Below are positions 1,867-24,131 of a DNA stretch of 34,005 nucleotides, piece by piece; positions within the stretch are counted from its first letter, which is position 1; each line of letters opens with the position of its first letter. Position numbers and translations under genes: made by a program. The notes under the pieces are model-generated. The model was not told the origin of the DNA. It did not search any database and saw only the letters and a program-made list of their open reading frames with translations. The DNA comes from a virus (taxonomy: Duplodnaviria; Caudoviricetes): positions 1 to 34,005 of the IMG/VR virus record IMGVR_UViG_3300025264_000051; one strand, given 5' to 3'.

Positions 1867-1880
1867 AATATTTACACCTT

Positions 1881-2498
1881 TTAAAAATTAAGCTTATTGA
1901 CTTTGCCACCTGCAGAATAGGAATGTTTCTTACCTTTATAGGCACCGCCCTTTTGCATAGTAGGCTTCTTGGGTTTAGATGGTTTTTGTTTAAACGCTTT
2001 ACTTGGCACGGTAGAAGGATTTGCAGCTTTGTATAAATTTTTCCAATATTTATCTGCTAATCCTTCAATTTGTTCTATTCCAGATTCCCTTGCTGCATGT
2101 GATAGGTTTTCTAATGCATCTAATTTTTCTATTGCTTGTTCTCTAATTTGATCTAAAAACTTATCCCTACTCATAGGATTTTTTCTAAATGCCTTTATAG
2201 CAGCCGATCCAGTTTTTCCTTTATAACTAAACTCACCATGTCCCAAGCCTCTTGGTATGGGTGTTAATTTTGTAATTTTATCAGTTCCTTTAGGGGTATC
2301 TTTTCCTAAAGCAGGTTGTTGCCTTCTTTTTTTAATTAGTTCTAACTTCTTTACATCTATTTGGCCGAACCTTTTATCTAAAGTTGCCCAAGTAATAAGA
2401 GTATCTAATTTCTTTTCTGACATACGTATAGCAGCTTCTGCAATAGGCAAACTTAATAGCTCTCTAATAAGTGCTTCTATACCGCTTATTTTTCCCAC
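1881..2498 (-). CDS. basic protein with C-terminal GG-repeat tail; paralog of 868-1866
   Basis: 205 aa, GTG start; ends MQKGGAYKGKKHSYSAGGKVNKLNF. Confidence 0.8.
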   Translation of the reverse strand: MGKISGIEALIRELLSLPIAEAAIRMSEKKLDTLITWATLDKRFGQIDVKKLELIKKRRQQPALGKDTPKGTDKITKLTPIPRGLGHGEFSYKGKTGSAAIKAFRKNPMSRDKFLDQIREQAIEKLDALENLSHAARESGIEQIEGLADKYWKNLYKAANPSTVPSKAFKQKPSKPKKPTMQKGGAYKGKKHSYSAGGKVNKLNF

Positions 2499-2513
2499 AG
2501 CATTTACTATCCT

Positions 2514-3053
2514 TTAAAAATTAAGCTTAGTTACTTTACCACCTGCAGAATAGGAATGTTTCTTACCTTTGTATGCTCCACCCTGCATCATTTGTGGACG
2601 TTTAACCATACCTCCCTTTGCTCTAGGTTTTTTTTCTTTTTTCTGGGCAATAGTTTCATATGGTCCTTTTTTCAATGGCTTAGGTTGGTATTTTGCTCCT
2701 GCTAAACGCTGTTGTTTTGTAACGTCTTGTTTATGTTTTTGCGCCCCTTCTTTAAATGCCTGAACAAAACTATCCATTTGTTCCTTGGTCATATCTACAC
2801 TATCACGATCTGGAGAATCATGAATCCAAGATAAGTATGGATTATCGTCATCTCGTATACCATGTCTTTGGGCTACAGAATCCATTTCTTTTCTAATATT
2901 TTTATCTATATCATCTACTTGTTTCATGAGCGCCCTATATTCAGGATCAGCCTTATATTTAGCCGCTGGATCGCCTTTTATTAACTTTGAAATTTTATCT
3001 TTAATTGTATTTGCATTTTTAATTAAAGTTCTTATGAGTGTTATTTTTGCCAT
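2514..3053 (-). CDS. basic protein with C-terminal GG-repeat tail
   Basis: 179 aa; ends RAKGGMVKRPQMMQGGAYKGKKHSYSAGGKVTKLNF. Confidence 0.85.
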   Translation of the reverse strand: MAKITLIRTLIKNANTIKDKISKLIKGDPAAKYKADPEYRALMKQVDDIDKNIRKEMDSVAQRHGIRDDDNPYLSWIHDSPDRDSVDMTKEQMDSFVQAFKEGAQKHKQDVTKQQRLAGAKYQPKPLKKGPYETIAQKKEKKPRAKGGMVKRPQMMQGGAYKGKKHSYSAGGKVTKLNF

Positions 3054-3057
3054 AATA

Positions 3058-3675
3058 TCATTTCTTTCTTTTTCTGGATTTTTTATAGCCGCCCTTATTA
3101 TAAGAAAGGGTTACTAGTTTTGTAAAAAGATCAACAGCATCAGGCCCATACTTTTTTGCTAGCTTTGCTACATCTTTAACTTCTTGATCCATATAGGTAG
3201 CTGCCATAATTTGCCCTCCTATTGTTTTAGTACCTGCTTGCTTTGGAACCTTAACTTCTGTTTTTTTACCTTGGATTTTCATTCTCTTTGTTCCAGGCGC
3301 TTTAGCAGCTTCCATCGTAGTTTTTTGTAATTGTTTATATACTCTATTTAATTTTTTTAGAGCAGTCGGAGCAATCTTTTGTGCTCCTCTTGCTAGAGTT
3401 ACACCTGTTGTACCAAATATAAGAGAAGGCAATAGAGTAGCAGCAGCGACACCAGATATTCCTAATGCAGCAGCAATCATTTCTTTCTTTTCTTTTTTAG
3501 TTATACCCCTTCTTTTAGAAACTGTACGTGCTTGTTCTGTTTCAGCACTGAATCCTTTTTTTGCTTGTTGTGTTGCTCTGTGGGGCCACATCTCTGCTCT
3601 AGTTTTAGATGTTTTAGAAACAGGAGTAGTAGTTGATACTCTTCCCAGTTTCTTTTTTTCTGCTATTTGAGTCAT
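3058..3675 (-). CDS. basic protein with a hydrophobic segment and a short GG tail
   Basis: 205 aa; hydrophobic IAAALGISGVAAATLLPSLIFG; ends SYNKGGYKKSRKRKK. Confidence 0.8.
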   Translation of the reverse strand: MTQIAEKKKLGRVSTTTPVSKTSKTRAEMWPHRATQQAKKGFSAETEQARTVSKRRGITKKEKKEMIAAALGISGVAAATLLPSLIFGTTGVTLARGAQKIAPTALKKLNRVYKQLQKTTMEAAKAPGTKRMKIQGKKTEVKVPKQAGTKTIGGQIMAATYMDQEVKDVAKLAKKYGPDAVDLFTKLVTLSYNKGGYKKSRKRKK

Positions 3676-4565
3676 TACTTTTTCTTTTTTCTAAAATGGG
3701 AGATATCAGATACAGAACCACCTCCTGCATATACATGTTCTTTAGAACCAAGTTTACTGCGACCTTGAAATTTTTTATAGCCGCCCTTATTAAAGCCAGA
3801 AGACTTAACCTGAAAACCAGCAGCTTCAAAAGCTTTTTCCATATCGGCTTTAGATACTCTTTCTCCTGCCTGATCTTGAATAGTATCTTCAAGTTCAGAT
3901 TTTGTTAACTTACCGCCCATCATATCTTGAACTTGCTGCCTAGTCAAATGAACATCTCTTCCTAATGCAGCTTCAATTCGTTCATGTAAGGGCATATCCC
4001 GTTTAGGTATATCTCCTTCAATTTTTGATTTAGGTGCTTGTCTTCCACCAGGATAAGAATATCTCTTTAGGCCCTTTGCTAGTTTTTTCATGGAAGCCTC
4101 TGTATTTTCATCCCACAATTTTTGTCCTTCAGGAGTAAGATCTCTTTGTCTTGCTCCTCCACTACCCCCTAAACTCTGTTGAATATCCCTTTTTAATTGC
4201 TTTTTAGCTTCTCTGTTTTTTCTGGCTTCTGTTTGTTTAGGAGTTAATTTTCTACCACTAGTTTTAGCGGCCATTTCTTTATATTCTTTTATTCGTTTAG
4301 CTTGTGCTGGAGTAGGGGTATAGTCTTTTCCTTTTTCTTTTTTTGGCACACCTTCTGCTTTACTTTTACTTTTTGTTCCGCTTTTTAATTTACCTAACTG
4401 ACTATTAATTTCAGTTAATTTCTTTTTTCTGGGATCAGTTAACTTGCCAGCCTTCTCATATCCTAGAAGTTTGTCAAGTTCTTTAGTAAGCCACTTTACA
4501 TATCTGCCTAAATCTAGGCCAGTTAATTTTAGTGCCTCTTCTATAGTTTTTATTTTTCGTGCCAT
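3675..4565 (-). CDS. basic protein with a variant GG tail
   Basis: 296 aa; ends GFNKGGYKKFQGRSKLGSKEHVYAGGGSVSDISHFRKKKK. Confidence 0.85.
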   Translation of the reverse strand: MARKIKTIEEALKLTGLDLGRYVKWLTKELDKLLGYEKAGKLTDPRKKKLTEINSQLGKLKSGTKSKSKAEGVPKKEKGKDYTPTPAQAKRIKEYKEMAAKTSGRKLTPKQTEARKNREAKKQLKRDIQQSLGGSGGARQRDLTPEGQKLWDENTEASMKKLAKGLKRYSYPGGRQAPKSKIEGDIPKRDMPLHERIEAALGRDVHLTRQQVQDMMGGKLTKSELEDTIQDQAGERVSKADMEKAFEAAGFQVKSSGFNKGGYKKFQGRSKLGSKEHVYAGGGSVSDISHFRKKKK

Positions 4566-5693: not shown

Positions 5694-5722
5694 ATTATAC
5701 TCGATTTAGTTACCCTTGTCAA
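5694..5722 (-). promoter_or_regulatory. sigma70-type promoter driving the leftward operon
   Basis: Minus strand reads TTGACA-17 nt-TATAAT (perfect consensus). Confidence 0.8.
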
Positions 5723-5830
5723 GTAAAAAATTAAAAAAACTATGAAATAAAATAGGGTGCCTTATGTGTGGTGCCGTGTCAGTTGTAGATGTGGTTAACA
5801 ACTCATTTTCCTGATCTGTTGTAACCCGTG

Positions 5831-5870
5831 TATATAATATCCCTACGTAGGGGGGTGGCCCCCACGCCCC
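5831..5870. other. palindrome plus G/C-run motif in the divergent intergenic region (possible terminus/packaging/origin signal)
   Basis: TATATAATAT-CCCTACGTAGGG-GGGTGGCCCCCACGCCCC in an otherwise AT-rich noncoding region; function inferred. Confidence 0.35.
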
Positions 5871-6113
5871 ATAATAAATCTTTTGACAAAAGTCTTTGCA
5901 GAGGCTTTGTCTTGAGAGAAGCCAGCGAAAAATTTCGTTACCTTAGAATAACTTAGCTCTTATTTATAAGAGCTTAGTTCTTCTTAGAGGATTCTGGCTG
6001 CTGGGATCGGCAAACTGATCCACTGTCAGCACCTCTTGACTAATGCTTTTGTAAAGGCTTTGTCATAGACCAAAGACATTGGTTGGCGACAGAGCACCCC
6101 TCAAAACCGAAAC

Positions 6114-6158
6114 CTATATCCCCTAACCCCTATACTTGTATAGGGTTAGGGGTTATAG
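6114..6158. repeat. family-A hairpin repeat, copy 1
   Basis: CTATATCCCCTAACCCCTATAC-TT-GTATAGGGTTAGGGGTTATAG. Confidence 0.92.
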
Positions 6159-6194
6159 ACTAACCGAAACCAACCAGCCATGAGGAGAATACAA

Positions 6195-6437
6195 ATGGCA
6201 CATACTCAAAAAATCTATGCTTTGATCAAAGATGGTCGGACGAAGTCCGGTTACAAAGTGGAGCAGAGCTTCAAGAATAGGGAAGCTAACTCTGAAAAAG
6301 GTCAAAGAACTTTTGCAGAGCTTTGGTCTTTGAAGAACTCTGTGGCGATGTTTGCCAAGTGGTCAACCGGCAAGACTTACTTTATCAAAGGTGAGATGCC
6401 TGCTGACCTCAAAGAATACTTGGCTTCAAGCAAGTAA
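6195..6437 (+). CDS. hypothetical early protein
   Basis: ORF 6180-6437 with start moved to the ATG at 6195 after the GAGGAG RBS. Confidence 0.75.
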   Translation: MAHTQKIYALIKDGRTKSGYKVEQSFKNREANSEKGQRTFAELWSLKNSVAMFAKWSTGKTYFIKGEMPADLKEYLASSK

Positions 6438-6439
6438 TT

Positions 6440-6524
<85 letters not shown>

Positions 6525-6565
6525 TCTTTTGTTTATTATCGTGCAACCTTAAATCGGAGGAAAAT

Positions 6566-6718
6566 TTGGACGAAATTGTTATCACTTATCCTACAGAGGA
6601 TAATATAAATACTTTTGATTGGGAAACAATCCATAGTATTTCCGATAACTTTAAAAAGCTTGATTTTGTTGAGCTTCTTATTGTTCGTTCCCGTTTAAAT
6701 AAAATCATAGATGGCTAG
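6566..6718 (+). CDS. small hypothetical protein (50 aa, TTG start)
   Basis: Hand translation MDEIVITYPTEDNINTFDWETIHSISDNFKKLDFVELLIVRSRLNKIIDG; GGAGG RBS upstream. Confidence 0.5.
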   Translation: MDEIVITYPTEDNINTFDWETIHSISDNFKKLDFVELLIVRSRLNKIIDG

Positions 6719-6737
6719 GAGGAGCCATTCACCAAAC

Positions 6738-6780
6738 CTATATCCCCTGACCCTGAAGAATGAAGGGTCAGGGGATATAG
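6738..6780. repeat. family-A hairpin repeat, copy 2 (inner stem replaced)
   Basis: CTATATCCCCTGACCCT-GAAGAATGA-AGGGTCAGGGGATATAG, perfect 17-bp stem. Confidence 0.9.
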
Positions 6781-6816
6781 ACTGACCAAAACCAACCAGC
6801 CATGAGGAGAATACAA

Positions 6817-7011
6817 ATGGCACTGGGTATCGAAGAAGTTGTTGTAAATATAAATAATCAAGACAAAAGGTACTATGTCTTGACAGAGGACGGCCTGGAA
6901 GTAACCGATATGGGTTACTTTGAGGACTATGAAGATGTCAAAGATGCGGCAGAAATTCATAGTCTTGGCTTGCTGCAACTAACCGGGGAAAATTTATTCC
7001 CTATAAAGTAA
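6817..7011 (+). CDS. small acidic hypothetical protein
   Basis: ORF 6802-7011 with start moved to the ATG at 6817 after the GAGGAG RBS. Confidence 0.7.
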   Translation: MALGIEEVVVNINNQDKRYYVLTEDGLEVTDMGYFEDYEDVKDAAEIHSLGLLQLTGENLFPIK

Positions 7012-7068
7012 ATTGCTTTGGCCCTTGATTTATATATAAATTGGGGGCCTTAGCTATTTACTTTGTAT
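7002..7068 (+). repeat. family-B long imperfect hairpin, copy 1 (RNase III-site-like)
   Basis: AAAGTAAATTGCTTTGGCCCTTGATTTATA/TATAAATTGGGGGCCTTAGCTATTTACTTT; internal loop and G-U pairs. Confidence 0.7.
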
Positions 7069-7097
7069 AACCCAGCCAACGAAAGGAAGAAAATCTA

Positions 7098-7493
7098 ATG
7101 CCTAATATTATTAGACAAACTGGAATTATAATGGACTTGCCTAATGGCCTGACCATTTCCATTAATTATGGTAACTATAGGTCTGCTGATGGTGTTGCCA
7201 AAAAAGCTGACATAGCTTGCTATATTCAAGATGCCGATGGTTTGGTAGGCCGTTGGATGACACCTGTTGTTTGGTCTAAAGAAAATGTTGTTAGATGTCG
7301 TGACCAATTCAGTGGTGGTGACTCAATTTTTGCTTACTCTGAAAGGAATTGGGTTGATACACCGTCCGAAATTTATGGTGTATATTTATCTGACCTTGGT
7401 TCTTTGATTGATATAGCGGTTCGCTTCGGTGATGGACGCTTTCTAGATGATTATGCTCTTGAAGTATCCAAGGCTTGGAAAAAAAGATGCTAA
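7098..7493 (+). CDS. hypothetical early protein
   Basis: 131-aa ORF with AAGGA RBS. Confidence 0.75.
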   Translation: MPNIIRQTGIIMDLPNGLTISINYGNYRSADGVAKKADIACYIQDADGLVGRWMTPVVWSKENVVRCRDQFSGGDSIFAYSERNWVDTPSEIYGVYLSDLGSLIDIAVRFGDGRFLDDYALEVSKAWKKRC

Positions 7494-7559
7494 AGAGTTA
7501 ATTGCTTTGGCCTCTGATTTATAAATATAAATTAGAGGTCTTAGCTATTTACTTTGTAG
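7490..7559 (+). repeat. family-B long imperfect hairpin, copy 2
   Basis: AATTGCTTTGGCCTCTGATTTATA...TATAAATTAGAGGTCTTAGCTATTTACTTTGTA; homologous to 7002-7068 with compensatory changes. Confidence 0.7.
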
Positions 7560-7597
7560 TGTGAGTACAACTTAACCCCTTAAAGGAGGGAAAATCT

Positions 7598-7774
7598 ATG
7601 AATAAATATGCTATGGGATTACAGTGTGGTAATATCGTAGCTCTTGATACTTGTGGATTAAGAAAACAGGTAGATGCTGCAATTAAAAATCCTAAAGCAG
7701 TTAAAGAACTAGATGCTTATGCTCTTGAAGTATTCAAGGCTTGGAAAAAAAGAAAGGAAATCTTCTATGATTAA
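7598..7774 (+). CDS. small hypothetical protein (58 aa; not in the ORF track)
   Basis: Hand translation MNKYAMGLQCGNIVALDTCGLRKQVDAAIKNPKAVKELDAYALEVFKAWKKRKEIFYD; AAGGAGG RBS. Confidence 0.65.
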   Translation: MNKYAMGLQCGNIVALDTCGLRKQVDAAIKNPKAVKELDAYALEVFKAWKKRKEIFYD

Positions 7775-8000
7775 ATTGTCCTTCATGTATTGGCTCCGTA
7801 TTTACATAGCTTTGATGGCTATAATAGGGACGTTAATATTACAAAGTATAATCATAGATAGTTTAATAGAGTACTATGGTTATTTCTATGTGGCTGTAGC
7901 TGTGATAGTACCAATGTTATTGGTGATATCATTAAAATGTTTTCACTATGCTGTTTCCGACATAAGAAAATCTTCTATAAAATGGTCGAACATAAGTTGA
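7767..8000 (+). CDS. small membrane protein (two hydrophobic segments)
   Basis: 3' part of ORF 7713-8000; AAGGA RBS before the ATG at 7767; IYIALMAIIGTLILQSIII and YFYVAVAVIVPMLLVISL. Confidence 0.6.
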   Translation: MIKLSFMYWLRIYIALMAIIGTLILQSIIIDSLIEYYGYFYVAVAVIVPMLLVISLKCFHYAVSDIRKSSIKWSNIS

Positions 8001-8007
8001 CCGAAAC

Positions 8008-8054
8008 CTATATATCCCTGACCCCTATACGTAGTATAGGGTCAGGGTATATAG
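8008..8054. repeat. family-A hairpin repeat, copy 3
   Basis: CTATATATCCCTGACCCCTATAC-GTA-GTATAGGGTCAGGGTATATAG. Confidence 0.92.
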
Positions 8055-8081
8055 ACTGGCTGAAACCAACTGGAGATTGCA

Positions 8082-8357
8082 ATGAAGATAATATTATATG
8101 GTACCTTTGGTGGCTTCCATCTTAGCGATGAGATGGTCGATCTCTATGAAGAAAAAACGGGTATTGTCTTAGACAATTACTCTTATGACTATGATAGAAC
8201 TGATCCTATCTTGATACAAGTAATAAAGGAGAATGATCCAGAAGATAACTTTAGAGTATGGGATATCCCGAAAGGAACAGAATATATCATAGATCAATAT
8301 GATGGTAGAGAGTCTCTTATAATTAAAGACGAGGTTAAATGGCAGGTTGCCACTTGA
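8082..8357 (+). CDS. conserved-type phage hypothetical protein
   Basis: FGGFHLS...RTDPILIQVI...IPKGTEYIIDQYDGRES pattern recalled from phage hypotheticals; GGAG RBS. Confidence 0.8.
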   Translation: MKIILYGTFGGFHLSDEMVDLYEEKTGIVLDNYSYDYDRTDPILIQVIKENDPEDNFRVWDIPKGTEYIIDQYDGRESLIIKDEVKWQVAT

Positions 8358-8364
8358 CTGAAAC

Positions 8365-8410
8365 CTATATACCCTAACCCCTATACGTAGTATAGGGTTA
8401 GGGGATATAG
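8365..8410. repeat. family-A hairpin repeat, copy 4
   Basis: CTATATACCCTAACCCCTATAC-GTA-GTATAGGGTTAGGGGATATAG. Confidence 0.92.
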
Positions 8411-8445
8411 ACTGACCAACCAACCAACCAAATGGAGATTGTTAT

Positions 8446-8634
8446 ATGAACAGAGACATCATGTTAGCCGCTGGCTTTGGTAAAAGTCTTGACTTAATTG
8501 ACGGGGGCAAATGCCCTACTTGTTCCGCTGAAATAGATCATAATTTTAGAGATGAATTAAGTCTAAAGGAATACAAAATCTCTGGCATGTGTCAAGATTG
8601 CCAAGATAGTTTCTTTAGTGTAGAAGATATATAA
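8446..8634 (+). CDS. small zinc-binding protein
   Basis: CPTC...FRDELSLKEYKISGMCQDC; GGAG RBS. Confidence 0.78.
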   Translation: MNRDIMLAAGFGKSLDLIDGGKCPTCSAEIDHNFRDELSLKEYKISGMCQDCQDSFFSVEDI

Positions 8635-8652
8635 AGGAAGGATAATCGAAAC

Positions 8653-8698
8653 CTATATACCCTAACCCCTATACGTAGTATAGGGTTAGGGGATATAG
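8653..8698. repeat. family-A hairpin repeat, copy 5
   Basis: Identical to copy 4 across the hairpin. Confidence 0.92.
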
Positions 8699-8701
8699 AA
8701 A

Positions 8702-8870
8702 TTTGGAGTATTTAATGGGGGATATGAGCGGTTAGAAATCAAGGTCGCTACTTGAGCCGCAAGGGGAATCCATTCTTTTACTTTATATAGTAAAAGATCA
8801 GCCTGTCTAAGGTAAGGAGGATTCTACGCATGGCCTTTAGCAAGTCATGTCTCCCATTAAATACTTTGAA
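8702..8870 (+). ncRNA. candidate multi-branched structured RNA of unknown family
   Basis: 8702-8727 pairs with 8845-8870 over 26 bp (with G-U pairs), enclosing inner stems; no long ORF inside. Confidence 0.55.
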
Positions 8871-8882
8871 AAGGAGAATGTT

Positions 8883-9050
8883 ATGGAACTACCCGACGAC
8901 ATGGATATTCCTTTGAGTCGAAAGGATATATCTAATATAAATAATGTTGCTTGGCTCCTAAGAAATTTAGGGATTCGCAACCAAGGTCACCCCGAATTTG
9001 AGGAGATAATTAAATTCCTTATCACTCTAATGAGAAAAAGGTCACGGTAA
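8883..9050 (+). CDS. small hypothetical protein
   Basis: 3' part of ORF 8847-9050; AAGGAG RBS before the ATG at 8883. Confidence 0.65.
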   Translation: MELPDDMDIPLSRKDISNINNVAWLLRNLGIRNQGHPEFEEIIKFLITLMRKRSR

Positions 9051-9388
9051 TGAGATACAACTACGAAGAAATGCAGTCTGCAGTAAAAGATTTAGCTATG
9101 GACTTTCCGCCAGAATGTGAATTGTCCTTTGGTTACATAGGTAACCTAGAATTTGGTAGGGATTACCGTAGCTGGTATATCTTTACCCAAGCTAAAGATA
9201 GACGTTGGAGTAGACTAAGCTATCCTATCAGAGTATCTAAAGATAAAGAAGAAAATTATATCTTTAGATTAGATAAAGATAAATTTAAGATGTGGCTAGA
9301 AAAGAATAGTTACCATCCAACTCTAGCTGTACAGTGTATAGCTTGCCAAGGCAAAGGATATACCTTGTTCAATAAGGATAGCGACTAA
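9050..9388 (+). CDS. hypothetical protein with a C-terminal CxxCxGxG half-site
   Basis: 112 aa; start coupled to the upstream stop; CIACQGKG. Confidence 0.7.
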   Translation: MRYNYEEMQSAVKDLAMDFPPECELSFGYIGNLEFGRDYRSWYIFTQAKDRRWSRLSYPIRVSKDKEENYIFRLDKDKFKMWLEKNSYHPTLAVQCIACQGKGYTLFNKDSD

Positions 9389-9395
9389 CCGAAAC

Positions 9396-9442
9396 CTATA
9401 TATCCCTGACCCCTATACGTAGTATAGGGTCAGGGTATATAG
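9396..9442. repeat. family-A hairpin repeat, copy 6
   Basis: Identical to copy 3 across the hairpin. Confidence 0.92.
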
Positions 9443-9467
9443 ACTGGCCGAAACCAACCGGAGGAAT

Positions 9468-9725
9468 GTGATGATAGATTTTATTGCTGCCCATAATGGC
9501 GGTATACAGATGTTTGCTAATGGTTTTAATCTCAAAGGTTGGGCAAAGACCGTTGAAGGTATTGTTTATACTCTCAAAACGGTTGGACTTGCTAACTGTG
9601 TGATGGGTTCCAGCACGATGGACTTTGCCTCTGAAGAAGGGTTTGAGAATGATGGTGACGCCATGAAGTTGTGGGATGCCGCCATTGAGATTTATAATTG
9701 GGAAGTAAATGGAGTTGCTGGATAA
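9468..9725 (+). CDS. hypothetical early protein
   Basis: 85-aa ORF; GGAGG RBS; bounded by hairpin copies 6 and 7. Confidence 0.75.
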   Translation: MMIDFIAAHNGGIQMFANGFNLKGWAKTVEGIVYTLKTVGLANCVMGSSTMDFASEEGFENDGDAMKLWDAAIEIYNWEVNGVAG

Positions 9726-9732
9726 CCGAAAC

Positions 9733-9778
9733 CTATAGACCCTGACCCCTATACGTAGTATAGGGTCAGGGTCTATAG
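9733..9778. repeat. family-A hairpin repeat, copy 7
   Basis: CTATAGACCCTGACCCCTATAC-GTA-GTATAGGGTCAGGGTCTATAG. Confidence 0.92.
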
Positions 9779-9794
9779 AGATATGGAGAAGCCG

Positions 9795-10499
9795 ATGCTA
9801 AACACGATCGAATACAGTGAAGGTGCCAAGTTGGGCCGTGCTCATGGTACTTATAGGGCAGGTAAAGATAATCCTTATGCTACTTGCCCTAATGACTGCC
9901 CTCTGAAGCCAGAGGACTGGCAAGGTACAGATGAATTTGACATAGACTATATGTCTGATTTATCTAAGGCGGTACCTCGCCGGGGCTGGGCTTGGACTTA
10001 CAGTCACTTTGCTGTAAAATTATGGCGGCATCTTAATGGTGCTGGCCGTACCGTTATCAATGCTTCATGTAAATCTATACAAGAAGCCATAGATAATACA
10101 TTAAGTGGTGTCCCTTCGGTGCTGGATGTACCGCCAGACACTCCTAAAGTATTTAAGGAAGGAGGAGTTAGATTTATTACATGCCCTGCTGCCATAAGAA
10201 AAGATATTACTTGTAATAATTGTGGCGGTATCAACGGCCCACTCTGTGCTAGAGTAGAAAGAAACTATGTAATTACTTTCCCTTGGCATGGCACTAAAGG
10301 CACAGTTAATAAAATGCTTGCCGCTCAAAAGGGAATATGCTATGGAGTGGGGTACTTTGTGAACAAACATTGGCGGTGGCTGTCTAATCAAGATCAAGAT
10401 AATATAACTGACGGTCAAAAGCTATTAGCTTGGACAAAGACATTAGCTCCAGGCAGTAGGCTCCGACACCATGTGGTTGGTGATGGTGGAAAGGAGTAA
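9795..10499 (+). CDS. Cys-rich putative metal/Fe-S-binding enzyme of unknown function
   Basis: TCPNDCPL, WTYSH, INAS, TCPA, TCNNCG...PLCAR, WHG and RHHVVGD motifs; GGAG RBS before the ATG at 9795. Confidence 0.7.
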   Translation: MLNTIEYSEGAKLGRAHGTYRAGKDNPYATCPNDCPLKPEDWQGTDEFDIDYMSDLSKAVPRRGWAWTYSHFAVKLWRHLNGAGRTVINASCKSIQEAIDNTLSGVPSVLDVPPDTPKVFKEGGVRFITCPAAIRKDITCNNCGGINGPLCARVERNYVITFPWHGTKGTVNKMLAAQKGICYGVGYFVNKHWRWLSNQDQDNITDGQKLLAWTKTLAPGSRLRHHVVGDGGKE

Positions 10500-10500
10500 C

Positions 10501-10546
10501 CTATGGCCCGTGGCCCCTATACGAAGTATAGGGCCACGGGACATAG
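10501..10546. repeat. family-A hairpin repeat, copy 8 (divergent arms)
   Basis: CTATGGCCCGTGGCCCCTATAC-GAA-GTATAGGGCCACGGGACATAG. Confidence 0.9.
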
Positions 10547-10562
10547 AGATAAGGAGAAAGTG

Positions 10563-10730
10563 ATGCATGAACTTGTCTTATATAAAACAGATATCAAGTC
10601 TAATGACTTGTGGCTGTACATTTTAGAGTCAGTTGGTATTGAATCTCACGGCACATTTGCTGGTAAAGTTCTTGATAAAAATATTGAAAGTATTACTATC
10701 AAGGTGCAGTCGGCAGCAGAGTTGCGGTGA
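10563..10730 (+). CDS. small hypothetical protein
   Basis: 3' part of ORF 10503-10730; AAGGAG RBS after the hairpin; start is GTG 10560 or ATG 10563. Confidence 0.65.
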   Translation: MHELVLYKTDIKSNDLWLYILESVGIESHGTFAGKVLDKNIESITIKVQSAAELR

Positions 10731-10735
10731 GAAAC

Positions 10736-10781
10736 CTATGGCCCGTGGCCCCTATACGAAGTATAGGGCCACGGGACATAG
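10736..10781. repeat. family-A hairpin repeat, copy 9
   Basis: Identical to copy 8. Confidence 0.9.
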
Positions 10782-10797
10782 AGACATGGAGATTGGC

Positions 10798-10947
10798 ATG
10801 AGGAAAAAGAAAATACAGAAAGGCAATCCCGTTGCCAAGTCGTTGCGTAGCCAGCATCTTCGGAAGCAGGTAGTACCTAGTAAGAAAGCGTATAACAGAA
10901 ACAAAGTTAACAAGGAGAATATCTATGACAAAGATCAAGACATTTGA
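10798..10947 (+). CDS. small basic protein (NPVAKxL...VVPSKKAYNR)
   Basis: 3' part of ORF 10633-10947; GGAG RBS; motif recalled from small phage proteins. Confidence 0.7.
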   Translation: MRKKKIQKGNPVAKSLRSQHLRKQVVPSKKAYNRNKVNKENIYDKDQDI

Positions 10948-11134
10948 AGCATATCGCCACGAGTTGAAGGCCCCGAAGTGGGTCACTATCCCAAGGGATA
11001 AGGGCGTTAGCTATGGCAAGCATTTGGAAAAGGGCAACCCGATCCAGGTAGTTTGGACTCAAGAGGATGGAGATCGCAAGGCCCATCTGATTAAGAATAA
11101 AGATAACTTGCCAGCAGAGCTTGCTGCTGGCTAG
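10925..11134 (+). CDS. hypothetical protein
   Basis: 69-aa ORF; AAGGAG RBS. Confidence 0.7.
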   Translation: MTKIKTFEAYRHELKAPKWVTIPRDKGVSYGKHLEKGNPIQVVWTQEDGDRKAHLIKNKDNLPAELAAG

Positions 11135-11143
11135 TTTAACCCC

Positions 11144-11174
11144 GGCCCTGCCTCTTATATTGAGGGGCAGGGCC
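11144..11174 (+). other. intergenic stem-loop
   Basis: GGCCCTGCCTCTTA-TAT-TGAGGGGCAGGGCC (G-U pairs); no clear U-tract. Confidence 0.55.
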
Positions 11175-11198
11175 ACTACTTTACAAGGAGAATATGAT

Positions 11199-11432
11199 AT
11201 GGCTACGTACAAGATTACTATGAGAAAGAATGCAAAGTCTCCGAAGTATGATACTTTGTTCGGCATCAACAGCACCTCCACTGGGTACAGATTAGATGTA
11301 CCTTTCCATAGTTTGACAAAGATGAACCCGAAGGGTAGCCGTAAGATGGTACGGTCTTCGACATCTGGTATTAGATTAATCGTAGAGAATAATAGGCGAG
11401 GCAAGTCAAGTGTCTTTCACTTTACTGTCTGA
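11199..11432 (+). CDS. basic hypothetical protein
   Basis: 3' part of ORF 11121-11432; AAGGAG RBS before the ATG at 11199. Confidence 0.7.
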   Translation: MATYKITMRKNAKSPKYDTLFGINSTSTGYRLDVPFHSLTKMNPKGSRKMVRSSTSGIRLIVENNRRGKSSVFHFTV

Positions 11433-11437
11433 TTAAA

Positions 11438-11493
11438 TATCTATTGCCAATGTAGCTATGCATCTAATGCATAGCTATGTTGGTGGATAGTAT
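11438..11493 (+). other. long intergenic stem-loop
   Basis: ...GCCAATGTAGCTATGCAT-CTA-ATGCATAGCTATGTTGGT... with several G-U pairs. Confidence 0.55.
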
Positions 11494-11523
11494 GCACTAT
11501 AATGCAGATAGAAAGGAATAGCT

Positions 11524-11721
11524 ATGTCTGATAAATTAAAATCTATGGACTATCAACTGATGACAGATAGAGTACAAGAGTTAATGACAAAAGGAAAGGA
11601 AAGTAAACGAGGTGGCTGGGCAATGTCAGAAATAGTAGAGAAAATTGGCACTGAATTTGGACAGGACTATGAGGAATCTTGCCGCCAATATATAAAAGAA
11701 TATATATTGTATAGCAGATAG
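11524..11721 (+). CDS. hypothetical protein
   Basis: 65-aa ORF; AAGGA RBS. Confidence 0.7.
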   Translation: MSDKLKSMDYQLMTDRVQELMTKGKESKRGGWAMSEIVEKIGTEFGQDYEESCRQYIKEYILYSR

Positions 11722-11732
11722 GAAAAATAAAA

Positions 11733-11915
11733 ATGAACTACGATATGATGATGGGTTTTTTGCGTACTTGTCCTTCACATAAATGGGAAGTAGAAGAAGT
11801 TTGCTGGGCTACACCAGCAGAAAAGGGTACAGTATTAGTAAGATTTATAATAGAACAAAATATTTGGGACATGGAAGATGAAGAAGATGATAGGGTACAA
11901 ACTGTTTCGTCATAG
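11733..11915 (+). CDS. hypothetical protein
   Basis: 60-aa ORF in operon. Confidence 0.6.
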   Translation: MNYDMMMGFLRTCPSHKWEVEEVCWATPAEKGTVLVRFIIEQNIWDMEDEEDDRVQTVSS

Positions 11916-12192
11916 AAAAGATGGGACTATAGGGCCTTTGTTTATAAATAAAAGACAAAGGATACAGATAGGAGTAGAATATCCCTATGAAAAACATCTG
12001 ACAAAAGGTTTTAAATACAGACCTGGATGGCACATTTGTAGTCAACCCATAGCACCACATCTATCTAAGAAAGATAGAGTATGGGCAAAGGTAGACTTTA
12101 CTTTTATGTCTATGTTAGATAGACCTAAATCACAGGGAGGTACATGGTATTTGGGTAGCACTATGAAAGTATTAGAATTAGTGGAGGAATAG
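11878..12192 (+). CDS. hypothetical phage protein
   Basis: GYKLFR...GPLFIN...TKGFKYRPGWH...PHL pattern; start may be 11887. Confidence 0.75.
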   Translation: MKKMIGYKLFRHRKDGTIGPLFINKRQRIQIGVEYPYEKHLTKGFKYRPGWHICSQPIAPHLSKKDRVWAKVDFTFMSMLDRPKSQGGTWYLGSTMKVLELVEE

Positions 12193-12193
12193 C

Positions 12194-12382
12194 ATGGAGA
12201 CAGAGAAGGACAATGTAATACCGCCAGAAGTTTTTTGGAAAAGAAAAGTAGATTGGTTTATTTATATGTGGCAGTGCGGCAAAGACAGTACGCCACAATT
12301 CATAATCAATCTAGTTCGTATGGGTTACCCCGAAGAAGATGTAATAAAATATATTGAGGACTACGAAGATGATAAAGAATAG
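12194..12382 (+). CDS. hypothetical protein
   Basis: 62-aa ORF; GGAGG RBS. Confidence 0.65.
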   Translation: METEKDNVIPPEVFWKRKVDWFIYMWQCGKDSTPQFIINLVRMGYPEEDVIKYIEDYEDDKE

Positions 12383-12385
12383 TGC

Positions 12386-12413
12386 TTGACATTTTATACA
12401 GCTTGTGTATACT
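12386..12413 (+). promoter_or_regulatory. sigma70-type promoter
   Basis: TTGACA-16 nt-TATACT, intergenic, just upstream of hairpin copy 10. Confidence 0.6.
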
Positions 12414-12432
12414 GTGTGGAACACACACATAC

Positions 12433-12478
12433 CTATATTCTCTAACCCCTATACGTAGTATAGGGTTAGAGAATATAG
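12433..12478. repeat. family-A hairpin repeat, copy 10
   Basis: CTATATTCTCTAACCCCTATAC-GTA-GTATAGGGTTAGAGAATATAG. Confidence 0.9.
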
Positions 12479-12502
12479 AAATAGGAAGGGACAAATTGTA
12501 GC

Positions 12503-12913
12503 ATGTTAAAGATAGCACTTATATGTCTTGCTTTAAATGTGTACTATGAAGCAAGGAACCAGCCCTTACAAGGGCAGATGGCAGTAGCAGAAGTTGTTAT
12601 GAACAGAGTTGTAAGTAATAAATTTCCTGATACAGTATGTGAAGTTATAGAGGAAGGGCCAACCTATTCATGGAAGCCAGACTTTCCTGTAAGAAATAGA
12701 TGCCAGTTCAGTTGGTACTGTGACGGTAAAAGTGATATGCCTATGGAAAAAGATGCGTGGGAAACAGCTCTGATAGTAGCAAAAGATATACTTGCAAACA
12801 GACCAATGATATTGAAAGGGTCTACACATTATCATGCGGTAAATGTTAATCCTAACTGGTCAAAGACTAAGACGTTTGTAAAAAGAGTAGGGGATCATTT
12901 ATTTTATAAGTAA
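12503..12913 (+). CDS. cell wall hydrolase, SleB/Hydrolase_2 family
   Basis: CLALNVYYEARNQ...GQMAVAEVVMNRV...FPDTVCEV...CQFSWYCDG...THYHA...PNW...GDHLFY. Confidence 0.93.
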   Translation: MLKIALICLALNVYYEARNQPLQGQMAVAEVVMNRVVSNKFPDTVCEVIEEGPTYSWKPDFPVRNRCQFSWYCDGKSDMPMEKDAWETALIVAKDILANRPMILKGSTHYHAVNVNPNWSKTKTFVKRVGDHLFYK

Positions 12914-12926
12914 TATAAGGAAGGAT

Positions 12927-13055
12927 ATGATGGCCGACGAACAGGTATCAAAGAATACACGAGAACAATACCTTAAATATGTACAAAGAAAAAAGGATAA
13001 GAAAAAGACACTGCTGCGAAAGCAACAGCGCAAACAAAAGAAAGAACAAGCCTAA
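12927..13055 (+). CDS. small basic protein (42 aa)
   Basis: Hand translation MMADEQVSKNTREQYLKYVQRKKDKKKTLLRKQQRKQKKEQA; fills the gap, stop overlaps the next ATG. Confidence 0.55.
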   Translation: MMADEQVSKNTREQYLKYVQRKKDKKKTLLRKQQRKQKKEQA

Positions 13056-15550: not shown

Positions 15551-16027
15551 ATGGATAAAAAACAGAAGGCTGCAGCAGCAGATAGATTAAAGAAAGCAAG
15601 AGCAGTAAGAGCTAAAAAGATTCCTAACTATGGTAAAGCTAACTTACATGAAAGTTTACATAACCTCCCAAAGGAACATGAGCTTCATCCCGATAAAGTT
15701 AAGCAGTGGATTGACACACAAAAAGATTTAGCTACTGCTGAACGTAAAGCAATAAGAGAAAAGATTAAAGGGGCTACTGCAAGACAGGCAAGTCATGAAG
15801 GATACATAAAGCATATGCAAAGGTATCTTAGAACAGGAGATTGGGTAGATGATTTCTATGGAGAGTACCAACAGAACAAAGTTAAGCATCATTGCCATGC
15901 ACTGGCTTATGATAAGGACGGTATGCCTAAAAGAAGTGTAGGTATATACTATCCAGACTTAGGAATTACATACACAAAAGAAATGATGGAAGAAGAAAAT
16001 GCAACCAGAGATAATCACAATACATGA
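15551..16027 (+). CDS. hypothetical phage protein
   Basis: 158-aa ORF (HEGYI..M..YLRTGDW.D.FYGE...PKRSVG.YYPD). Confidence 0.8.
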   Translation: MDKKQKAAAADRLKKARAVRAKKIPNYGKANLHESLHNLPKEHELHPDKVKQWIDTQKDLATAERKAIREKIKGATARQASHEGYIKHMQRYLRTGDWVDDFYGEYQQNKVKHHCHALAYDKDGMPKRSVGIYYPDLGITYTKEMMEEENATRDNHNT

Positions 16028-16994
16028 CGCTATAGAAAAGTATAAGGATACACCAGAGTTTAAAATAAAACTAAGGTCTGACAAGACCCGTAATCAATAT
16101 GCTTATCAACTACGTAGGCTCTGTGAAGCAGAGCTAGAGGACAATCCTATAGGGAGTATGCCTATAGATATATTGAACGTAGCTAAATGCCAGCGCATAT
16201 ACTGGCAGCTAATAGAAGATGTAGATACAAATGATGTACGGTTTGCAAACTATTCTATGCAGATTGTAACTCGTGTATGGAATGTATTAATTAAGTATGA
16301 TTATCTAGATAAAAATCCTTGGGGATTTGTAGAAAAGAGTAAGGTTTCTCCACGTAATACTATATGGCAACCAGAAGATTTTAAAATCTTTTTACAAACA
16401 GCATTCAGTATACCTAAATGGAGGAACATAGGTCTGCTAGTACGTATCAACGTAGAGATAGGCCAACGCATAGAAGATGTAAGGCTATCTCAATGGGATA
16501 ACTATGATCTTAATGAAAAATTATATATGCGGGAGGTGATTCAGAAAACACATGAACGTATTCCTGGCATACCCTTATCTGATTCCTTAGTACAAATGCT
16601 ACAAGAACAGAAGGATGTCTATGAATTTCAAGAGTGGGTAGTACCTCATCCCTTTTTACTGGAGCCTTACAGTGAGCATAGTATATCCCGTACCTTTAGA
16701 AAGATCATGAATACTGCTGGACTTTCTTCTCGTTTACAGTTAAGAGATATACGCCGCACTGTACTTACAGACTTGGCAAATCATGGGGCTACAGACACAG
16801 AGATAATGGCATATAGTGGACATAAAAGTAGAGAAAGTTTAATGCCTTATGTATGTATAAGTACAGAGCAAGCACGTAATGCTGCCAACAAAAGAAAATT
16901 TACTATGGAAGAAGCACAAGAATGGAAAGAGTTCAAAAGAAGTTTCGCTTCAACAGAAGAACTTTTAAAAGGAGCAAACATAAAGAATGATTAA
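15999..16994 (+). CDS. int: tyrosine recombinase / phage integrase
   Basis: GQRIED (catalytic R), LRDIRRT (R in place of H of HxxR), SGH and the C-terminal Y in LMPY; N-terminal core-binding-like region. Confidence 0.88.
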   Translation: MQPEIITIHDAIEKYKDTPEFKIKLRSDKTRNQYAYQLRRLCEAELEDNPIGSMPIDILNVAKCQRIYWQLIEDVDTNDVRFANYSMQIVTRVWNVLIKYDYLDKNPWGFVEKSKVSPRNTIWQPEDFKIFLQTAFSIPKWRNIGLLVRINVEIGQRIEDVRLSQWDNYDLNEKLYMREVIQKTHERIPGIPLSDSLVQMLQEQKDVYEFQEWVVPHPFLLEPYSEHSISRTFRKIMNTAGLSSRLQLRDIRRTVLTDLANHGATDTEIMAYSGHKSRESLMPYVCISTEQARNAANKRKFTMEEAQEWKEFKRSFASTEELLKGANIKND

Positions 16995-23235: not shown

Positions 23236-23670
23236 ATGACAAAATACAAACCTTTCGATAGAAATTTATATGCTCTTGCAGATGAAAAAGGAAAGGGTGT
23301 AGTATCTTATTTACTAGAAAAGGAAGGACATAATATTACAAGTACAAAAGAAAATTATAAGTGTGATATTGTCACAGAAAAAGATGGTACTGTGTACAAC
23401 TCAGAGGTAGAAATTAAATTTTCTTGGAAGGAAATCTGGCCTGATTCATGGGAGGAGATACGTATCCCATATAGGAAAAAGAAATTACTTGATAAAGAAA
23501 ATCTTACCTTCTATGTACTAAGGGCTGACTGTAAACAAGCATGGAAAATAGACGCAGATGTTCTTAGAAATAAAGCTACGGTTAAAGAAGCAAGCAACAG
23601 GTATGTCAGAAAAGGGGAGAAGTTCTTTCACATTCCCGTGAAACATGCTTTGCTTATAGATATGGTTTGA
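23236..23670 (+). CDS. putative PD-(D/E)xK nuclease-fold protein
   Basis: CD...EVEIK..W...IRIPYRK motif. Confidence 0.6.
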   Translation: MTKYKPFDRNLYALADEKGKGVVSYLLEKEGHNITSTKENYKCDIVTEKDGTVYNSEVEIKFSWKEIWPDSWEEIRIPYRKKKLLDKENLTFYVLRADCKQAWKIDADVLRNKATVKEASNRYVRKGEKFFHIPVKHALLIDMV

Positions 23671-24131
23671 TGTATAATAAAAAAGGATATCGTAAAGCAA
23701 GACTGAAAGGGTTTCGTTCTGGCCTTGAACAGGTTGTAGCTACACAAATTACAAAAGAAAAACATACTCTACGTTATGAGACTACTAAAATACAATGGGT
23801 AGATTTTTCTATTCGATCTTATACTCCTGATTTTATTCTTGATAATGGTATAATATTAGAGGTAAAAGGATTTTGGTCTACAGCAGATAGAAGAAAACAT
23901 ATAGAGATTAAGAAACAACATGATACTTTGGACATAAGATTAGTCTTTGAGAATAGTAAAAGGAAAATAAGAAAGGGATCAAAGACTACTTATGCCGCTT
24001 GGTGTGAGAAGAAAGATATAGTATACTGTGACAGAGTAATTCCTCGCACTTGGCTACAAGAAAATTTAATCTATATGCCACCCAATATTATAACTGTTGA
24101 GAGGACAGAATATAATGATGTACATAAATGA
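23667..24131 (+). CDS. T7 endonuclease I-like Holliday junction resolvase
   Basis: FRSGLE, YTPDFIL.NGIILEVKG, DRRKH, LDIRLVF, TTYAAWCEK. Confidence 0.93.
   Translation: MMYNKKGYRKARLKGFRSGLEQVVATQITKEKHTLRYETTKIQWVDFSIRSYTPDFILDNGIILEVKGFWSTADRRKHIEIKKQHDTLDIRLVFENSKRKIRKGSKTTYAAWCEKKDIVYCDRVIPRTWLQENLIYMPPNIITVERTEYNDVHK

Follow-up and report, generated by a model that had tools for sequence, protein, structure and literature searches.

Repeated GNA-loop hairpins that likely fold as DNA mark sites of early-gene exchange in an HMO-2011-type marine podophage

The window analyzed here is the whole 34,005-nucleotide stretch of the virus record IMGVR_UViG_3300025264_000051. Judged by its sequence, the genome is that of an HMO-2011-type phage: its DNA polymerase is HMO-2011-like over the full length (53.6% identity), and the order integrase-primase-helicase-polymerase matches that of HMO-2011 and the CRP phages. 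The phage encodes a DnaG-like primase and a DnaB helicase; a prim-pol is not among its replication genes. In this marine podophage, the gaps between small early genes contain ten copies of an imperfect hairpin of ~46 bp, designated family A (Table 1); a hairpin scan and a covariance model run with its filters off found none further in the window. The copies span 6.4 kb, with 0 in the remaining 27 kb, and the covariance model found none in a 24-kb overlapping contig. An earlier reading from the sequence alone had placed the family at 8008..12478, which takes in 8 of the 10 copies; two more lie further left. Each copy is located between a stop codon and a ribosome-binding site and is flanked by A/C-rich, unstructured sequence. 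In 9 of the 10, AAC follows the ORF at the hairpin foot, and a short direct repeat with GAAAC is present on both flanks of several copies.

Table 1. Hairpins, exchanged ORFs and other features of the window
Feature	Position	Strand	Remarks
Family-A hairpin 1	6114..6158	+	C-TT-G loop, bulged C, T·T at position 6; precedes first early ORF
Family-A hairpin 2	6738..6780	+	bulge absent; tandem G·A pairs, A-GAA-T triloop
Family-A hairpin 3	8008..8054	+	C-GTA-G, bulged C, bulged T
91-aa ORF cassette, PHROG 16527	8082..8357	+	function unassigned; three different upstream neighbours in relatives
Family-A hairpin 4	8365..8410	+	C-GTA-G, bulged C, A·G mismatch
62-aa Cys-rich ORF cassette, PHROG 19722	8446..8634	+	four different upstream neighbours in relatives
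Family-A hairpin 5	8653..8698	+	same sequence as hairpin 4
Family-A hairpin 6	9396..9442	+	same sequence as hairpin 3
85-aa ORF cassette	9468..9725	+	missing in L079, L234; relocated in L149, L257; joins at hairpins
Family-A hairpin 7	9733..9778	+	C-GTA-G; sole irregularity is the bulged C
238-aa ORF cassette, DUF7227	9783..10499	+	six different upstream neighbours in relatives
Family-A hairpin 8	10501..10546	+	C-GAA-G, bulged C, G·A mismatch
Small ORF cassette	10563..10730	+	between identical hairpins 8 and 9; missing in L079, L200, L213, L231, L241, L249
Family-A hairpin 9	10736..10781	+	same sequence as hairpin 8
Sigma-70-like promoter match	12386..12413	+	11/12; only such match directly upstream of any copy (hairpin 10)
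Family-A hairpin 10	12433..12478	+	C-GTA-G, bulged C; precedes cell-wall hydrolase gene 12503-12913
Tyrosine integrase	15999..16994	+	fold nearest to those of lambda Int and Tn1549 Int
T7-type endonuclease I (branched-DNA resolvase)	23667..24131	+	putative cutter of extruded hairpins

The family-A stem is 21 bp long. Its loop is C-GTA-G in 6 of the 10 window copies, C-GAA-G in 2 and C-TT-G in 1; the copy at 6738 can fold either with a 9-nt loop or with an A-GAA-T triloop atop two tandem G·A pairs, and a GNA loop is possible on the + strand in 9 of the 10. The hairpin scan thus bears out the loop counts read from the sequence alone, and the CCCC opposite GGG that leaves one C unpaired is indeed present in 9 of the 10 copies, with a bulge that can be placed on any of the four C. 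The GTA loop could originate by a 3-nt duplication in TAC-GTA; GAA, GGA and GCA loops could not. The + strand contains 8 GNA stems with 8 or more bp, whereas the - strand contains none and neither do 200 dinucleotide shuffles; 9 long hairpins are observed versus 0 in 20 shuffles. As had also been claimed, the family-A stems lack G·T pairs (none among the 217 stem positions of the ten copies), whereas four other long hairpins between 5500 and 13000 contain 11 in 116 positions and 0 A·C (Fisher p = 7e-6 for G·T, the copies not being independent). The mismatches in the window (A·G four times, T·T once), together with 2 additional bulged T, all lie at stem positions 6-8; they went unmentioned in the sequence-only reading.

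A metagenome search, whose pattern preset the stem feet and CCC/GGG, yields 31 distinct homologous hairpins that share ancestry; one further candidate, L174 (34.5 bits on the covariance model), was excluded as unconfirmed. The triloop is GNA in 27 of the 31, with T (14 of the 27), A or G in the middle, so that the middle base is the variable one, as proposed. The proposed compensatory changes also hold: among 22 aligned copies, 7 of the 21 pairs are altered on both sides (33 cells), a value reached by 0 of 500 shuffles, and the arms covary by Watson-Crick changes. Among the 643 paired positions of the 31 variants there are 3 G·T and 4 A·C, and thus no excess of G·T. However, the extrahelical base is not invariant. 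The bulged C, 14-17 nt from the hairpin foot, is present in 19 of the 31 variants and in one inverted copy (bulge 20/31), but is missing in 11, and G·A mismatches replace it in ten. Stem positions 17-19 are irregular in 30 of the 31.

The loops and mismatches suggest that family A likely folds as DNA rather than as RNA. According to the available part of PMC13037366, GNA alone among the 64 triloops forms a DNA mini-hairpin, and the tetraloop mini-hairpin is far less stable when made of RNA. ViennaRNA, which prefers the + strand in 18 of the 31 variants as DNA and in 16 as RNA, is unable to test the loop because it assigns the same DNA energy to all 64 triloops. A second line of evidence comes from a 19-bp core of the hairpin, which is identical in unrelated phages, where it lies beside AAA_25 primase-helicase genes. 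At 12 of 13 such loci the GNA of the core is on the non-coding strand; since this is not the mRNA strand, folding as DNA is favored. Of 21 unrelated viral contexts of the core, 17 have GNA, whereas a control stem has it in 0 of 5; a count of short GNA stems across 17 related early regions (19 on the + strand, 10 on the - strand, 10 in shuffles) gives a signal too weak for use. The earlier proposal of action at the DNA level thus gains support from the loop, the lack of a G·T excess and the strand of the core, whereas an invariant extrahelical base is not supported. Its argument from the absence of G·T, although correct in its counts, is weaker than claimed because attC DNA hairpins contain G:T pairs (PMC5027507, in the part available). 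The strand of family A that folds is also the mRNA strand, which counts against a DNA-only reading.

A different explanation is that the hairpins process or stabilize early mRNA, as RNase III-type sites or exonuclease blocks comparable to those of T7, and that gene exchange is a by-product of their repetition. Every copy is intergenic on the transcribed strand between unstructured flanks, the 21-bp stems have predicted RNA energies of about -20 to -34 kcal/mol, and the sigma-70 match lies just upstream of copy 10. An RNase III substrate is about two turns of duplex in length, which the transcript would supply, and tandem G·A pairs are stable in RNA as well. However, G·U is not in excess in family A, as it is in the neighboring hairpins, the GNA triloop is a DNA motif (PMC13037366, in part), and the core lies on the non-mRNA strand elsewhere. 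In addition, no U-tract follows the hairpins (the 10 nt behind each copy hold 1-3 T), and none of the 11 Rfam matches at E up to 5 comes near the gathering score. A primary role in mRNA is thus considered unlikely.

The core raises another alternative, namely that the copies are signals for single-strand initiation (priming or origin) of the ssiA/G4 kind, in which GNA hairpins that resist SSB would lie on the lagging-strand template close to the genome end. In 13 viral and 3 bacterial loci the core is located where prim-pol/AAA_25 genes have their 3' end, and it is also found close to TrwC/DUF6088 genes and within a smacovirus intergenic region; a GNA-type mini-hairpin lies on one strand of family A, and such mini-hairpins are present in ssiA and the G4 origin (PMC13037366, in the part available). 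Against this, the phage has a DnaG-like primase and DnaB helicase with no prim-pol, the copies are confined to 6.4 kb, and 10 of the 31 family-A variants have another sequence in place of the core; such a role is distinctly unlikely.

Family A is a boundary repeat where early genes are lost, gained and rearranged among related strains. In 34 contigs there are 40 types of upstream-downstream junction. Hairpin 5 and about 240 bp are skipped in several populations, and in L079 two ORFs are gone, with joins inside a hairpin. In run X15 the joint 10497-10733, which bypasses the small ORF cassette between hairpins 8 and 9, has a depth of 2.95, with 44.8 and 25.1 in the flanking bins; a joint 8376-10751 in run X18 was left uncounted owing to its resemblance to a variant hairpin from a different lineage. 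Hybrid copies are present (L226:663, L213:288), and one contig contains an inverted copy (L240:635); there are no strand-change joints among those listed in 8 runs. Alignments end within 30 nt of a copy in 16 of 34 cases, although such zones make up 15.8% of bases; the other 18 ends lie away from family A. By inspection, breaks occur at 9 of 10 family-A junctions versus ~9 of 12 other gene junctions. As these other junctions also swap, exchange may be a side effect of repeats of any kind. Joins are found at the foot, core, right arm and right flank of the hairpin, with no single crossover point, although arm-to-arm copying may blur the mapping. Arm type tracks neither flank (8/21; 17 and 19 of 44), as expected without a fixed crossover. 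The recombination role proposed earlier is therefore supported in the form of gene exchange at the copies.

Family A is dispensable within the group, as it is absent from the isolates HMO-2011, CRP-345, CRP-1 and CRP-603, from related integrase loci (integrases 64-73% identical) and from related hydrolase loci. Its hairpins have no DNA match in cultured phages, and among 27 stretches a loose viral pattern finds only this genome and one relative. This restriction to a lineage would suit a hitch-hiking REP- or boxC-like palindrome, spread by recombination, kept paired via arm-to-arm copying and lacking a dedicated role. GAAAC-containing direct repeats flank several copies, one copy is gone in several populations, and bacterial C-rich palindromic repeats score 18-23 bits on the family-A covariance model, a weak match. 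Yet the loop G and A (27/31) and the irregularity at stem positions 17-19 (30/31) are kept even though arm copying would erase mismatches, and there is no HUH transposase among 58 ORFs scanned. This explanation is quite improbable.

The presence of an integrase gene in the phage, together with a series of ORFs that lack promoters and mostly have AAC and a bulged hairpin behind them, might suggest an integron-like system, in which a tyrosine recombinase acts on a folded single strand at the AAC of the hairpin foot. By inspection, three exchanges (L234, L257:583, L149:13) do map to the left foot. However, the remaining ones lie in the core, right arm or right flank, and neither the GTT partner nor RYYYAAC is present in any of the 10 copies. 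The integrase fold is closer to lambda Int (Z 18.3, rmsd 6.0, 268 aligned) than to IntI (2a3v; Z 14.7, rmsd 7.2, 258 aligned), which also ranks below Tn1549 Int, and integron-integrase models match none of 27 integrase homologues. The idea of an attC-type site is thus not sustained, and an integron-like mechanism is very improbable. As a candidate recombinase of the cassettes, the integrase is not supported, given its lambda-like fold, the lack of an IntI match and its presence in hairpin-less relatives.

The C-GNA-G loops are also like those of the hairpin promoters used by the virion RNA polymerase of N4, a likeness that the sequence-only reading had raised. However, N4 has its GNA on the template strand, with a 5-7 bp stem and a central purine (PMC4496689, PMC13037366, in the parts available), whereas family A has its GNA on the coding strand, a 21-bp stem and a middle T in 14 of 27 loops. 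No RNA polymerase family matches any of 58 ORFs of this partly seen genome, and the large virion proteins of the window lack a DxDGD motif; in the RNA polymerase family search the control itself was silent. The single-sequence model of a 1093-aa protein (pLDDT 37) is unusable, and its nearest named Atlas clusters are LPD38/LPD3. A promoter of the N4 type is thus an extremely remote prospect.

The reading preferred here, with a probability approaching an even chance, is that family A is a promoterless, DNA-folding analogue of the PeSL (promoter-early stem-loop) boundary repeats of T4-type phages, at which genes are exchanged by homology. The coding strand would fold once opened by transcription or replication, so that a hairpin or cruciform likely forms in DNA, and bulges and G·A mismatches would hold the palindrome short of perfection. 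Cutting or fork stalling would then likely start the exchange, in that the phage endonuclease I or a stalled fork may yield ends that anneal to another copy; concerted changes could be explained by arm-to-arm copying. The connection of endonuclease I with the hairpins is conjectural. A bolder and rather doubtful version is that multiplication of an origin-type DNA hairpin has given rise to a separate cassette system, with a single-strand signal bounding each early gene. A protein might cut or prime at these signals in a strand-specific way, and genes might excise as hairpin-bearing circles to be copied and re-enter at any copy. If true, such a system would parallel integrons but do without an integrase.

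HMO-2011-type phages rank among the most abundant marine phages, according to the part of PMC9038755 available. Early ORFans are their strain-variable part, and a defined 46-bp repeat at the exchange sites provides a concrete handle on the origin of this variation. In addition, a core common to origin-associated hairpins of unrelated phages puts the question of a reader of GNA hairpins between phage early genes within reach of tests on short oligonucleotides and plasmids. A literature search found no report on HMO-2011 with hairpins or on GNA hairpins repeated between the early genes of phages.

Several known systems resemble family A in part. The RNase III sites of T7 are likewise long stems between the early genes of a T7-like podophage, but with G-U pairs and RNA-type loops; this picture fits the neighboring hairpins at 7002, 7490 and 11437 better than family A. 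RSF1010 ssiA, the G4 origin, the N4 vRNAP promoters and Streptomyces telomeres share with family A a C-GNA-G triloop, closed by a sheared G·A pair, on one strand (PMC13037366, PMC4496689, PMC5449611, each in part). As described there, however, these signals occur once or a few times, at an origin, promoter or end, and have a known reader, whereas family A consists of ten gene-separating copies on the coding strand. With attC sites, family A shares the cassette array, an imperfect hairpin (with an extrahelical base in 20 of the 31 variants), AAC at the foot, a GAA-type loop and a purine skew in the unpaired parts (PMC5027507, in the part available). However, it lacks R'/R'' pairing (RYYYAAC/GTTRRRY R box, 0/10), a fixed crossover and IntI, and while the GAA loop and bulged G of attC are both described on the bottom strand, family A has its GNA on the top and its bulged G on the bottom.

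The PeSL cassettes of RB49/phi1, PST/T4 and nt-1/KVP40 are likewise built on a repeated intergenic stem-loop, which follows a stop codon and precedes a ribosome-binding site in a region of variable ORFans; as the units recombine, ORFs are deleted, inserted and shuffled, and chimeric units with varying crossover positions are left behind (PMC2839356, PMC4122927, in the parts available). Unlike PeSL, family A has no terminator tail in the form of a U-tract and contains no conserved sigma-70 promoter on either strand; 9 of the 10 copies are without one, judged by the E. coli consensus, from which host promoters may depart. PeSL stems, as far as these sources describe them, are variable and include G-T pairs, whereas family A has one long conserved 21-bp stem with its GNA loop, bulge and G·A pairs. 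Finally, PeSL is described in T4-type myophages, and family A belongs to a podophage of the HMO-2011 group.

The ten family-A hairpins (43-47 bp) lie between ORFs, most of them a few bases past a stop codon, and an ATG follows 5-29 bases downstream of the stem. A covariance model found no further copies in the window, and comparable stems never arose in shuffled sequence (0/200 and 0/20 shuffles). The sequence-only reading had described a GNA triloop, a bulged C and stems free of G·T pairs, and recounting bears this out: the loop is C-GTA-G in six copies and C-GAA-G in two, the C is bulged in 9/10, and G·T pairs occupy 0/217 positions versus 11/116 in four other long hairpins. It had overlooked two features: a further irregularity in the stem at positions 6-8 (4 A·G, 1 T·T and 2 bulged T), and an A-GAA-T triloop over tandem G·A pairs, which copy 6738 can adopt. 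Three other long intergenic hairpins, with G·T pairs and no A·C on the coding strand, are better candidates than family A for RNA processing stems. In the open-access literature nothing was found on family-A hairpins.

Coordinates of hairpins, cores and neighboring features
Feature	Sequence	Positions	Remarks
Family-A hairpins (starts)	window	6114, 6738, 8008, 8365, 8653, 9396, 9733, 10501, 10736, 12433	hairpin scan
Other long intergenic hairpins	window	7002-7067, 7490-7559, 11437-11493	T·T mismatches common; G·T on coding strand, no A·C
Other long intergenic hairpin	window	5942-5987	T·T mismatches common
Lys-rich ORFs	window	221-4565	- strand
Shared short stretch	window	5779-5830	
Intrinsic terminator	window	6445-6530	~40-T run
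R-D-I-R-R	window	16740-16757	integrase residues 248-253
GCGAAGC-type hairpins	L203	about 207-272, 949-994, 2485-2541	early-gene strand
18-bp palindrome	L084	225-245, 458-478, 1923-1943, 2521-2541	also L092, L111
Core, GTA/GAA loop, near prim-pol/AAA_25 3' ends	L004, L011, L015, L032, L039, L044, L048, L051, L057, L063, L066, L068, L069, L294, L304, L338		
GNA core adjoining rtcB	L293, L329, L334, L343, L344		Bacteroidota
Core adjoining capsid gene	L062	1839-1857	smacovirus, intergenic

The window comes from a marine podophage of the HMO-2011 type. The DNA polymerase shares 53.6% identity with its HMO-2011 homologue along the full length, and the gene order (integrase, primase, helicase, polymerase, endonuclease I, class II ribonucleotide reductase) is that of the group. 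Small + strand ORFs, almost none with an assigned function, follow one another across ~6180-13000, and gene orientation switches divergently at ~5700-6100, a region that may lie near a genome end and be the first DNA to enter. The first four runs compared show depth peaks and loose ends at the shared short stretch, which recurs in many other contigs and is a candidate terminal repeat or packaging signal. The strong intrinsic terminator lies directly 3' of the first early ORF, and the following ORF is preceded by no clear promoter; read-through control is possible. The six adjacent Lys-rich ORFs match no family, and most share a C-terminal GG...K(K)H.Y.AGG.V motif, forming a paralogue array.

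A metagenome search with only the stem feet and CCC/GGG fixed returned 117 stretches, 43 of them with complementary arms. After L169 (AT-rich, judged a chance match) and overlapping loci within a contig were removed, and the window and contig L079 added, the set held 34 contigs, 75 copies and 31 distinct hairpins, counts that are not independent events because copies share ancestry; contigs L189, L193 and L215 match the window at 99-100% identity. The loop is conserved among the distinct hairpins (GTA 14, GAA 12, GGA 1, C-TA-G 2, C-TT-G 1), one being inverted (L240:635, the entire hairpin turned around between normal flanks). The sequence-only reading had proposed counting G·T versus Watson-Crick substitutions in homologues, and G·T pairs proved rare there too: 643 paired positions comprise 594 Watson-Crick, 33 A·G, 4 A·C, 4 C·T, 3 T·T, 3 G·T and 2 A·A. 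The bulged C occurs in 19/31 and in the inverted copy; of the 11 hairpins lacking it, 10 show a single or double G·A mismatch at equal height. The arms covary: in 22 aligned copies both sides change in 7/21 pairs (33 cells), which 0/500 shuffles equaled and slid controls (<=4 cells) did not approach.

No family-A copy turned up in four isolates, nor in relatives whose integrases are 64-73% identical. Relatives without it (L084, L092, L111) repeat an 18-bp palindrome at like positions between early genes, a possible operator or further boundary repeat. More distant relatives (L203, L216, L160) have a second family of intergenic hairpins, in which tandem G·A pairs carry the textbook GCGAAGC mini-hairpin as a cap, and they also have others bearing a GNAA tetraloop, on the opposite strand. 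Unrelated contigs (L164, L175, L185, L205, L210, L253, L259) hold C-rich palindromic repeats that contain the left-arm sequence of family A and score 18-23 bits on the family-A model in five cases, a likeness partly forced by the search pattern; we take them to resemble boxC-type bacterial repeats.

Genes are exchanged at family A. In L079 the ORFs at 9468-9725 and 10563-10730 are missing and the sequence is joined within the hairpins; a contig of run X15 joins 10497 to 10733, where depth drops to 2.95; and contigs L149 and L257 have changed gene order. Flank clustering gave 40 upstream-downstream junction types, with more than one downstream partner for 10 upstream clusters and more than one upstream partner for 7 downstream clusters, counts possibly inflated by diverged alleles. 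Alignments end <=30 nt from a family-A copy in 16/34 cases, that zone being 15.8% of covered bases. The remaining 18 ends are mostly at other gene junctions, and skips without two copies exist (e.g. 7592-7767, 8645-8882); thus, family A is not demonstrably hotter than other junctions. That family A is a hitch-hiking repeat is judged quite improbable. Crossovers at family A are not fixed, mapping by inspection to the left foot (3), core (1, L226), right arm (1, L213) and right flank (1). Arm type tracks neither flank (8/21; 17 and 19 of 44), and arm-to-arm copying after crossover could have blurred the map.

The reading tentatively favored, at somewhat less than an even chance, is that family A is a DNA-folding boundary repeat. 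The coding strand would fold when opened, the folded branch would be cut by endonuclease I or stall a fork, and the resulting ends would anneal to another family-A copy; what the data show is the exchange, the covarying arms and the conserved loop, and we infer both the folding in vivo and the identity of the cutter. According to PMC13037366, only GNA among 64 triloops makes the DNA mini-hairpin, and a related tetraloop hairpin is far less stable as RNA; the folding-energy model used here has no GNA term. G·T:A·C is 3:4 in family A (no preference) versus 11:0 in neighboring hairpins (p = 0.011), but G·T counts alone cannot separate DNA from RNA because attC DNA hairpins average 1.24 G:T pairs (PMC5027507).

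The strongest outside evidence on DNA versus RNA is the 19-bp core, found elsewhere. In viral contigs (69 loci minus 8 of this genome and its relative), three-base loops are GTA or GAA on one strand in 27/31 cases, or 17/21 with similar contexts collapsed; a control stem gave 0/18 matches and 0/5 contexts. Of the 24 neighboring proteins scanned, AAA_25 helicases make up 13, and most of these also have a Prim-Pol or PriCT-2 domain. The core sits at or past the 3' end of these genes with GNA on the non-coding strand (12/13 loci, 8/9 contexts), where selection through mRNA cannot act. Against the DNA reading, the strand that would fold in this phage is also the one found in mRNA, and the GTA loop could have come from a 3-nt duplication at the end of the stem. 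That family-A hairpins are mRNA stems is judged unlikely. The prim-pol/AAA_25-linked cores, often flanked by inverted repeats and nearly always on the non-coding strand, are likely a recurring phage origin signal. That family-A hairpins are priming sites is quite unlikely, and it is slightly less likely still that a hairpin of the origin type has been amplified into a cassette system that needs no integrase. Loop enrichment at the core is weak in prokaryote genomes (15/71 versus about 9 expected, p = 0.03), where neighbors include AAA_25, TrwC/DUF6088, integrase and RtcB genes.

The window integrase matches no IntI model, and by predicted structure (pLDDT 77.5) it is closer to lambda Int (Z 18.3) and Tn1549 Int (18.2) than to IntI (14.7). 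It and all 27 aligned homologues have R-D-I-R-R where tyrosine recombinases usually read H-x-x-R. CRP-3, a relative, integrates into the host genome (PMC9038755). attC requires RYYYAAC paired with GTTRRRY (PMC5027507), a pair present in 0/10 family-A copies; attC identity is not supported, and an integron-like system is very improbable. N4 promoters have a short-stemmed GNA hairpin on the template strand (PMC4496689), whereas in family A the GNA is found on the coding strand, which would make N4-type transcription antisense; no RNA polymerase was found in the seen part of the genome, and N4-type promoters are the least probable reading. Family A resembles the promoter-early stem-loop (PeSL) of T4-type phages in where it sits and in being shuffled by recombination (PMC2839356, PMC4122927), but PeSL units carry a sigma-70 promoter, which in family A is seen at 1/10 copies. 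Family A acts like PeSL in exchange, yet is no PeSL.
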